Positions 49,672-50,823 of a DNA stretch of 51,279 nucleotides are shown piece after piece. The stretch lies in assembly GCA_038817835.1 (NCBI GenBank), contig JAWAZI010000006.1, positions 1 through 51,279 on the forward strand, written 5' to 3'. Numbering within the stretch: the stretch's first letter is position 1; each line of letters opens with the position of its first letter. The notes beneath the pieces are model-generated. The model was not told where the DNA came from, did not search any database, and saw only the letters and a program-made list of their open reading frames with translations. The translations under genes and the position numbers were made by a program. This stretch comes from Candidatus Pacearchaeota archaeon (GTDB lineage Archaea; Nanobdellota; Nanobdellia; Pacearchaeales; JAPDKA01).

Positions 49672-50823
49672 ATGGTAAAAGAAGAAGAATATGTTGAATA
49701 TAAAGGCAAAAAGCTTTTTATCGAGGATGCTGAGTTTTTGGAGAAGTATAAAGGGAAAATAAAAGAGTATAACATAGAAAATAATTTTATTTCAAAAATA
49801 ACAATTCCTAGAGGCGCTGAATATATTTATAGCATCGGTGATCTTAAAAAACTGAAGAATTTGAAGAGATTGTATATTACGGGGGCAGCCATTAAAGATC
49901 TTACATATGACAAACTCCCAAAAAGCATAGAGGAGATTTATGCTATGAGGTGTGAGGAGTTAACAAATTATAAATTAAAAAATTTAAATAAATTGAAGGA
50001 ATTGGATATTAGGAGGACAGCTATCAATGAGCTTACATATGACAAACTCCCAGAAAGCACAGAGAAGATTTATGCTCGTGGGTGCAAGAATTTAACATAT
50101 TATAACTTAAAAAATTTAAATAAATTGAAGATATTGGATATTGGGGAGACAGCCATTAAAGAGCTTACATATGACAAACTCCCAGAAAGCATAGAAGTGA
50201 TTTATGCTGGTTGGTGCAAGAATTTAACAAATTATAATTTAAAAAATTTAAATAAATTGAAGGAATTGGATATTTTTGGGACAGCCATTGATGAGCTTAC
50301 ATATGACAAACTCCCAGAAAGCATTGAGGTGATTTCTGCTGGTGGGTGCAAGAATTTAACAAATTATAACTTAAAAAATTTAAATAAATTGAAGATATTG
50401 GGTATTCGGGTGACAGCCATTAAAGAGCTTACATATAACAAACTCCCAGAAAGCATAGAGGTGATTTCTGCTGGTTGGTGCGAGAATTTAACAAATTATA
50501 ATTTAAAAAATTTAAATAAATTGAAGGAATTGGATATTGGGGGGACAGCCATTGAAGAGCTTACATATGACAAACTCCCAGAAAGCATAGAAGTGATTTA
50601 TGCTTATCATTGTGAGAATTTAACAAAATGCAGCGTGAAAAACTTAAAGAATTTAAAGGAATTGTACATAGCTTCCTCTGGCATTAAAAAGCTTGGCCCA
50701 GAAGACATACCTGAGAGCTTAGAGACATTGGTGGTAAGTATTGACCAAGATGTGAGTGAAATCAAGAAAGACCCAAGATTTAAGAATTTGGAAATAAAAA
50801 GAGCAAGAGCATATTTTTTCTAA
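49672..50823 (+). CDS. Leucine-rich repeat protein, no signal peptide
   Basis: 44-aa double LRR LKELDIxxTAIxELTYDKLPESIEVIYAxxCKNLTNYNLKNLNK, six copies. Confidence 0.92.
   Translation: MVKEEEYVEYKGKKLFIEDAEFLEKYKGKIKEYNIENNFISKITIPRGAEYIYSIGDLKKLKNLKRLYITGAAIKDLTYDKLPKSIEEIYAMRCEELTNYKLKNLNKLKELDIRRTAINELTYDKLPESTEKIYARGCKNLTYYNLKNLNKLKILDIGETAIKELTYDKLPESIEVIYAGWCKNLTNYNLKNLNKLKELDIFGTAIDELTYDKLPESIEVISAGGCKNLTNYNLKNLNKLKILGIRVTAIKELTYNKLPESIEVISAGWCENLTNYNLKNLNKLKELDIGGTAIEELTYDKLPESIEVIYAYHCENLTKCSVKNLKNLKELYIASSGIKKLGPEDIPESLETLVVSIDQDVSEIKKDPRFKNLEIKRARAYFF
49861..50652 (+). repeat. Six tandem 132-bp intragenic repeats
   Basis: Units start with TTGAAG at 49861, 49993, 50125, 50257, 50389 and 50521. 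Confidence 0.95.

Follow-up and report, generated by a model that had tools for sequence, protein, structure and literature searches.

A leucine-rich-repeat-only gene with hypervariable residues beside its predicted concave strands in a Candidatus Pacearchaeota archaeon

The stretch of DNA analyzed here (the window; 51,279 nt) is the entire contig C6 of G000, a short-read metagenome-assembled genome (MAG) of a Candidatus Pacearchaeota archaeon that comprises 572 kb in 22 contigs, is 86.6% complete, and has a G+C content of ~24%. Near the end of the window lies gene 1, an open reading frame (ORF) for a protein built of leucine-rich repeats (LRRs), in which six tandem DNA units share a scaffold and differ strongly at a few fixed codons. 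The features of gene 1 are as follows.

49672 to 50823, forward strand: gene 1, an LRR-only ORF of 383 amino acids with a soluble predicted product (Pfam, AlphaFold2 model, no transmembrane segment or signal peptide)
49672 to 49842, forward strand: N-terminal cap (residues 1 to 57), family specific, kept in the homologs P0001 to P0004, P0012, P0034, P0049, and P0042
49843 to 50634, forward strand: six 132-bp units, each encoding a 44-residue module (Tandem Repeats Finder; codon table; hidden Markov model [HMM] domains of 88 to 100 bits each)
49879 to 49884 (unit 1), 50011 to 50016, 50143 to 50148, 50275 to 50280, 50407 to 50412, and 50539 to 50544 (units 2 to 6), forward strand: hypervariable di-residue A, codons 13 and 14 of each unit (codon table, variability, substitution ratios, unit alignment)
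49945 to 49950 (unit 1), 50077 to 50082, 50209 to 50214, 50341 to 50346, 50473 to 50478, and 50605 to 50610 (units 2 to 6), forward strand: hypervariable di-residue B, codons 35 and 36 of each unit (same evidence)
50635 to 50820, forward strand: degenerate seventh module and C-terminal cap (partial HMM match at residues 323 to 352; C terminus conserved in all family members)

Each 44-residue module consists of two 22-residue LRRs, LRR-A (L-K-x-L-x-I-x-x-T-A-I) and LRR-B (L-P-E-S-I-E-x-I-x-A-x-x-C-x-N-L), which we take to be an SDS22-like repeat joined to an "LPxSIExI..A-x-x-C" repeat. Tandem Repeats Finder reports a single array (49843 to 50664; period 132, 6.2 copies, 85% matches) with no indels, and the unit starts (49843 + 132k) are all in frame. 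From unit 1 to unit 6, codons 13 and 14 encode TG, RR, GE, FG, RV, and GG, and codons 35 and 36 encode MR, RG, GW, GG, GW, and YH. Codons 9 (R/E/I), 11 (Y/D/G), 31 (E/K/V), and 33 (Y/S) vary as well, and marker codons alternate between GAA and ATA at codon 9 (units 2 to 6) and between AAC and AAT at codon 44 (units 2 to 5). Our codon table reproduces all of the residue pairs, variable codons, and alternating markers listed in a first-pass annotation of this DNA. That annotation also described the units as nearly identical, silent sites included, which overstates the case: the synonymous divergence (dS) of the scaffold is 0.15 to 0.19, units 2 to 6 differ at 4 to 12% of the 120 nt outside the hypervariable codons, and unit 1 diverges by 16 to 20% over the same 120 nt. 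The higher-order 264-bp duplication that it had read from the alternating markers is weak, with an identity of 91.8% at offset 264 versus 89.4 to 90.1% at offset 132.

The motif, the profile matches, and the predicted solenoid all place the gene 1 product in the LRR superfamily. An LRR motif recurs in every 44-residue unit (L7-x-x-L10-x-I12-x-x-T15-x-I17 and I29-x-x-I32-x-A34-x-x-C37-x-x-L40), and Pfam returns LRR families and no other domain in the protein (LRR_EndoS, 58.8 bits, cut-off 27.9; LRR_4, 43.1 bits, cut-off 27). FNIP (PF05725) scores 24.2 bits over the whole protein (cut-off, 21), and no single stretch passes individually. The AlphaFold2 model, built from a five-sequence alignment, is a regular solenoid in which a short strand recurs at 11-residue intervals (predicted local distance difference test score [pLDDT], 95.8; predicted template modeling score, 0.90), and its LxxLxL segments form DSSP strands at codons 9 to 12 and 31 to 33. 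Codons 13 and 14 and codons 35 and 36 are thereby predicted to follow the concave strands directly, and the variable residues fall at the x positions of the LRR strands, as the first-pass annotation had held; the assignment is by motif register and DSSP strands of the model. Foldseek gave at least 500 PDB matches at E ≤ 0.001, and all 40 among the matches listed are LRR proteins, including TOL-1, CroV588 (rank 2), TLR7/8, SDS22, and Leptospira LRR proteins. Among solved chains, the giant-virus LRR protein CroV588 (PDB 6nyr, E = 3.7e-5, low identity) is the best match by sequence, and a Chlorobium Roco LRR is also near. The ESM Atlas yielded nothing beyond generic LRR look-alikes below 0.9. For the N-terminal cap, the structural look-alikes are the N-terminal parts of LRR proteins only, and no longer fused forms of this domain turned up, which is weak evidence. 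The earlier observation that the protein lacks a signal peptide holds: the N terminus is charged, and hydrophobic segments are absent (Kyte-Doolittle values over 19 residues peak at 0.44).

Among units 2 to 6, the hypervariable codons (13, 14, 35, and 36) differ at 46% of positions per pair, versus 8.7% elsewhere, and 10 of their 12 nucleotide columns vary, versus 22 of the other 120 (Fisher P = 9.5e-6 for a set chosen post hoc). A motif-defined set was fixed beforehand as positions 2, 3, 5, 7, and 8 of LxxLxLxx in both repeats, or ten codons. Eight of these ten x codons vary among units 2 to 6, versus 7 of the 34 others (one-sided Fisher P = 0.0011); among units 1 to 6, the counts are 8 of 10 versus 14 of 34 (P = 0.034). 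The NG86 ratio of nonsynonymous to synonymous rates (dN/dS) between units is 6.1 to 6.8 at the four hypervariable codons, 2.4 at the ten x positions, and 0.36 to 0.49 at the other 34 codons, in unit-versus-unit comparisons that all lie within one gene and whose lineages are not independent. A count of minimum substitutions (14 versus 6) gives the hypervariable codons a nonsynonymous rate 5.9 times as high as that of synonymous change in the scaffold (binomial P = 1.3e-4). The nonsynonymous excess is site specific, and dN/dS across the units, which the first-pass annotation had put forward as a check, is above 1 at the variable sites taken together.

The same sites vary among paralogs and in other genomes. 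We aligned 22 full units drawn from 10 proteins, after discarding every unit of P0042 and P0049 and any partial unit with more than three gaps (P0034 is a near-duplicate of P0159). Entropy in this alignment peaks at positions 13, 35, 14, and 36. The 16 units that come from other genes again have positions 35, 14, 13, and 36 as the most variable, with a mean entropy of 1.90 at x positions versus 0.90 elsewhere (Mann-Whitney P = 0.001). Glycine is the commonest residue at the four hypervariable sites (26 of 88), where the residue set is rich in G, R, W, and E. At the equivalent position in five genes, the last module reads GG/YH, GG/RG, ED/YH, G(G)E/NG, and GM/DG. A comparison of gene 1 with the fragment of a copy on contig C4 (see below) shows differences at 6 of 10 hypervariable codons (proportion of nonsynonymous differences [pN], 0.31), versus a pN of 0.042 and a synonymous proportion (pS) of 0.073 over the other 97 codons, and a 3-nt insertion is located at a hypervariable site.

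The gene is tandemly duplicated together with its flanking DNA, and the copies and flanks occupy the following positions.

49607 to 49671, forward strand: A/T-rich upstream region, probably a promoter; a TATA-like TTTATAAT lies ~20 nt ahead of the ATG (alignment with the copy 2 region 51016 to 51071)
50824 to 50950, forward strand: 3' flank conserved with the copy at the C4 end (alignment), with a 10-bp hairpin at ~50888 to 50915 followed by a T run, a putative terminator
51072 to 51279, forward strand: tandem paralog 2, start only, running off the contig end (ORF and alignment of the 5' part)
G000:C4 70293 to 69925, reverse strand: matching C-terminal fragment of a copy (genome searches, alignment)

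The first-pass annotation had suggested that the downstream DNA be inspected for more cassettes, and a second cassette indeed begins there (ORF from 51072), comprising the upstream region, the start codon, and the N-terminal domain. The last 127 nt of C6 (51153 to 51279) are identical to 49735 to 49861 of gene 1, and the stretch before them has 7 mismatches in 63 nt and an 18-nt indel. The identical tract argues for gene conversion; it may also be an assembler k-mer overlap, in which case it would mark a shared tract of at least 127 nt. The C4 fragment holds the last one and a half modules, the C terminus, and ~130 nt of conserved 3' flank. Paralog 2 runs off C6 and contig C4 ends within a copy; therefore, the assembly broke inside the repeats. 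The C4 fragment may be the end of gene 2; G000 has two or three copies of the gene. In the 3' flank, the hairpin has a modest folding energy (−25.4 kcal/mol, z = −1.88), and an insertion of 11 to 12 nt at ~50850 to 50872, resembling a direct duplication, is missing in the C4 copy; a metagenome contig from run X2 is also 11 nt shorter there.

Within the array, the four-gamete test failed for 16 of 28 pairs of biallelic informative sites in units 2 to 6 and for 17 of 28 in units 1 to 6, pairs of silent sites included. On this pattern, either the units are mosaics or recurrent mutation has struck the selected sites. Homologs carry 0, 1, 3, or 6 full modules, some with an N-terminal coiled coil, and their scaffold variants are gene specific, as expected from expansion and homogenization within each gene. 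The reshuffling by repeat recombination that the first-pass annotation had proposed agrees with the four-gamete failures, the identical paralog tract, and the range of module numbers. Several type-1 genes of the family sit close to the ends of their contigs or right at them (locus tags _00010 and _00030, one record marked "partial," and L018 at ~3 kb from an end), a placement that fits assemblies broken by repeats or strain variation.

The family has a narrow range. A word-indexed protein search returned 9 proteins at E ≤ 1e-3, the best four with identities of 76, 78, 54, and 44% and from MAGs labeled Pacearchaeota or Aenigmatarchaeota. An exhaustive search returned 1,022 at the same threshold, only eight of them with at least 45% identity, all short and from such MAGs or from G000; the remaining matches are long generic LRR proteins with 22 to 39% identity. 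Among 60 genomes of relatives, all three from the same taxonomic family matched (one weakly, E = 2.9e-4 with an internal stop), versus none of the 57 from the eight other families of the order. Scanning genome_contigs gave only 5 loci, in two genomes already found, and a protein-pattern scan of metagenome_contigs gave 598 candidate stretches with none confirmed (an exact 27-nt scaffold pattern had no matches). There was no relative in viral_contigs, and a viral origin was rejected on that ground. A divergent subfamily of 222 to 232 residues (L020 2854 to 3552 in G003; L021 2884 to 3552 in G001) is syntenic, lying between a membrane protein and a 129- to 131-residue ORF that we take to resemble aIF5A. 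The family would be best read as limited to a few DPANN (Pacearchaeota-labeled) hot-spring genomes. One of the proteins in the 22 to 39% range, P0042 (274 residues, 36% identity, labeled Hydrothermales bacterium), has the same N-terminal domain and a coiled coil; given this protein, the family may cross domains in hot environments.

Nine hot-spring metagenome runs from three studies contain part of the stretch, and four of these runs, from two studies, were compared by contig alignment. Run X1 yielded 261 short contigs on the LRR genes (82 at ≥99% identity, 84 at 95 to 99%, 70 at 90 to 95%, and 25 lower), none of which spans the gene. The contigs are ~90 to 130 nt long and fit several units, so that depth and variants in the repeated part yield neither allele frequencies nor copy numbers. 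Most of the listed variant letters in the array lie at codons 9, 11, 13, 14, 31, and 35, with others at codons 37 to 41 of unit 1; a further 165 differences lie outside this list, and the multiunit fit makes the tally no clean test. The nonrepeated N-terminal domain is clearer. All 8 of its variant codons encode the residues of the homolog P0001, and in 7 of 7 comparable cases they mismatch gene 2. The P0001 version, which has three modules and different variable residues, accounts for ~1/5 of the depth in X1 and, depending on the site, for ~2/5 to all of it in X5 and X6; it is minor in X1 and X2 and dominant in X5 and X6. The community is not monomorphic: at least two gene versions occur in the samples, as alleles of one species or orthologs of sister species, which bears at the community level on the variation that the first-pass annotation wanted checked.

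Gene 1 is also anomalous in codon usage. Its G+C content at third codon positions (GC3) is 0.339, versus a mean of 0.106 (standard deviation, 0.029) for the 354 ORFs of at least 150 amino acids on contigs C1 to C7, and it ranks highest of all, which bears out the earlier remark that its third positions are richer in G and C than those of other genes. Type-1 relatives in two other genomes are offset likewise (L002 and L003; 0.45 versus 0.23 and 0.49 versus 0.27 to 0.35 for the neighbors), and GC3 is not raised above the neighbors in a short gene at L011 (0.31) or in the divergent subfamily (0.20 to 0.22). The offset is compatible both with transfer from a donor that is less rich in A+T and with GC-biased gene conversion among recombining repeat units. 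Two further observations concern GC3. The gene at 18206 to 19612 (reverse strand), for a 468-residue protein that is Cys rich at its start and has a hydrophobic segment at the N terminus, ranks third in GC3 (0.27) on the large contigs; it contains tandem 12/18-bp repeats of the CCTCCACCACCG type (18757 to 18826), and its product may be another compositionally odd, possibly surface, protein. Seven small contigs (C10, C12, C13, C16, C19, C20, and C22) have 28 to 31% G+C and a GC3 of ~0.20 to 0.24, versus ~0.10 on the large contigs, and may be misbinned or derive from a mobile element or another strain.

We read gene 1, with a probability of roughly 60%, as a member of a family of soluble, cytoplasmic, LRR-only binding proteins whose arrays change by repeat recombination and whose binding face is under positive selection. 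The units are ~90% identical, and the array would therefore expand, contract, and partly homogenize by homologous recombination and gene conversion, which would act both within gene 1 and with the tandem paralog. In the two concave strands, positive selection for amino acid change would act on the x positions, which would face the solvent, and most strongly on the two residues after each strand, producing two "variable di-residues" per module. The result would be one scaffold with differing binding faces, presumably tracking a fast-changing partner from the host cell or a virus. Ligand binding by the variable face, continuing selection, and the nature of the ligand are what we infer. The first-pass annotation had proposed a diversifying recognition system, an idea that gains from the site-specific dN/dS, the recombination, and the presence of at least two gene versions and finds no support for dedicated machinery or an antiviral role (see below); a host-directed effector, its alternative, would be a candidate function.

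Several points weigh against our interpretation. The sample is small (four codons in six units), the face was assigned from motif register and DSSP strands rather than from coordinates, and unit order and number come from a short-read MAG only. Metagenome contigs cannot separate alleles from paralogs or sister species. A one-off fit to an asymmetric ligand, with no continuing diversification, could likewise produce high dN/dS between modules. In the divergent subfamily, the residues at the sites equivalent to the hypervariable ones are identical in two species, and the last module of P0002 has the same YH pair as that of gene 1.

A one-off fit to a stable ligand is a serious, if unlikely, rival. 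It supposes that the modules diverged once after duplication to suit one stable asymmetric partner, i.e., paralogous specialization with no arms race. The constancy of the subfamily beside the aIF5A-like ORF in G001 and G003, the shared terminal YH pair, and the presence of just two or three gene copies in G000 all speak for such a fixed surface, but five genes differ from one another at the hypervariable sites of the equivalent terminal module, homologs have anywhere from 0 to 6 modules, and two versions occur together in the same samples.

Relaxed constraint alone, under which the x positions would drift freely with no positive selection, we consider improbable. LRR surface loop residues do tolerate many substitutions, and glycine is the commonest residue at the four sites, but the nonsynonymous rate there is several times the synonymous rate of the scaffold, and dN/dS is 6 to 7 versus the ~1 of neutral drift.

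It is quite improbable that the six-unit array is an assembly artifact, a chimera of reads from paralogs or strains. The MAG is a short-read assembly, C6 and C4 both end inside copies, no metagenome contig spans the gene (Logan contigs there are ~90 to 130 nt), and the 127-nt identical end could be a k-mer overlap. Nevertheless, zero-difference pieces cover parts of the array in X1 (e.g., 50377 to 50467), the frame is intact with no indels over six units, and the same site-specific variability is seen in the separately assembled P0001, P0002, P0003, and P0015. A chimeric assembly could alter the unit order but not the phenomenon, a pattern that recurs in independently assembled homologs.

We give little credence to a bolder version, a modular reader resembling a transcription activator-like (TAL) effector, in which the two di-residues of each module would contact one ligand unit (a host or viral peptide or nucleic acid) and the signal-less protein would pass to the host via a cell-cell junction, as part of a reprogrammable set of episymbiont effectors.

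[quoted passage not shown] A control search for reverse transcriptases was positive in 3 of 14 genomes, and many other adenines of the unit are conserved. We rejected a DGR as far as the completeness of the genome allows and a VLR-like bank of silent LRR cassettes for want of any in the 572-kb assembly. The dedicated diversifying machinery envisaged in the first-pass annotation thus has no reverse transcriptase, template repeat, or silent cassettes to its name, and the sole tyrosine recombinase of the genome, on C4, is probably a housekeeping Xer. Its suggestion of an antiviral sensor is equally without support: there is no nucleoside triphosphatase (NTPase; NACHT, NB-ARC, or AAA) or effector domain in gene 1 (Pfam) or nearby, no PADLOC match for the LRR protein, and no conserved partner gene, as blastp of the locus neighbors of five relatives against the window neighbors matched LRR genes only.

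Our preferred interpretation, an LRR-only family with a selected face and recombining repeats, has parallels in several known systems. In lamprey VLRs and plant nucleotide-binding LRR receptors (NLRs; R-gene products), variability and positive selection occur at the concave-face x positions of LxxLxLxx. This parallel, drawn in the first-pass annotation, stands for the variability pattern and fails on the mechanism and architecture, since somatic assembly of VLRs draws on flanking cassettes and an NTPase domain is part of NLRs, neither of which was found in gene 1 or nearby. TAL effectors consist of tandem repeats that are near identical at the DNA level, with di-residue variation and arrays that evolve by recombination. 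Unlike the predicted LRR beta-solenoid of gene 1, their repeats are helical, DNA-binding units of 33 to 35 residues, and gene 1 is not a member.

IP22 repeats are defined by a start in I/L-P every 22 residues. The archaeal modules resemble the IP22/FNIP repeats of Dictyostelium, as described by Altae-Tran et al. 2020 (PMC10392669): the period is 22 residues, a pair of adjacent hypervariable residues sits on a conserved scaffold, and the number of repeats varies. They differ in that an LP-type repeat alternates with an SDS22-like one, which places LP every 44 residues, and identity is low. According to that paper, more than 90 LRR proteins of Dictyostelium purpureum have two hypervariable residues in succession within each repeat, which the paper, too, likens to the di-residues of TAL effectors; those residues are rich in Y, D, H, and N, versus G, R, W, and E in the archaeal family. 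The paper also describes tandem cell-surface LRR loci in Flavobacterium psychrophilum, with 2 to 14 internal LRRs of ~22 residues. These loci share with ours the tandem copies, variable LRR number, one-sided hypervariable positions, recombination signatures, and absence of mobilome genes. The Flavobacterium proteins carry a secretion peptide and a type 9 sorting signal and come in up to 19 copies with interspersed gene fragments (PMC10392669), unlike the gene 1 family, which is archaeal, lacks a signal peptide, has two or three copies, and is built on a 44-residue double module.

The genes flanking gene 1 have an ordinary chromosomal look (GC3, 0.09 to 0.14), with an Lhr-type helicase and two small winged-helix proteins upstream, and Rfam places only two tRNAs in the window and nothing at the LRR locus. 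The winged-helix genes (48414 to 48680 and 48706 to 49356, both forward strand) lie directly upstream of gene 1; the product of the first has weak CasR-like matches (E of ~1e-3), and that of the second has a coiled-coil N terminus and a weak match to PADLOC PbeC (E = 1.2e-5). Downstream of the LRR fragment on C4 are a 179-residue protein (G000:C4 69175 to 69714, reverse strand), with a weak ExoX-like C-terminal motif and a zinc-finger-like Cys pattern, and the tyrosine recombinase (G000:C4 68354 to 69175, reverse strand), whose gene overlaps that of the 179-residue protein by one base.

In the titles and opening abstract lines among the papers listed for DPANN, Pacearchaeota, and archaeal LRRs, we found no description of this family. 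As far as those sources go, a hypervariable LRR face is apparently a pattern known from bacteria and amoebae and not yet described in archaea. LRR-only proteins have hardly been described in archaea, and the molecules by which DPANN archaea recognize hosts or viruses are mostly unknown. The extreme GC3 poses a testable question, that of frequent transfer versus GC-biased gene conversion among repeats that recombine. A compact, cysteine-poor LRR scaffold from hot springs, in which natural variation marks the residues that can be changed, would be a candidate for binding studies and a possible scaffold for engineered binders.

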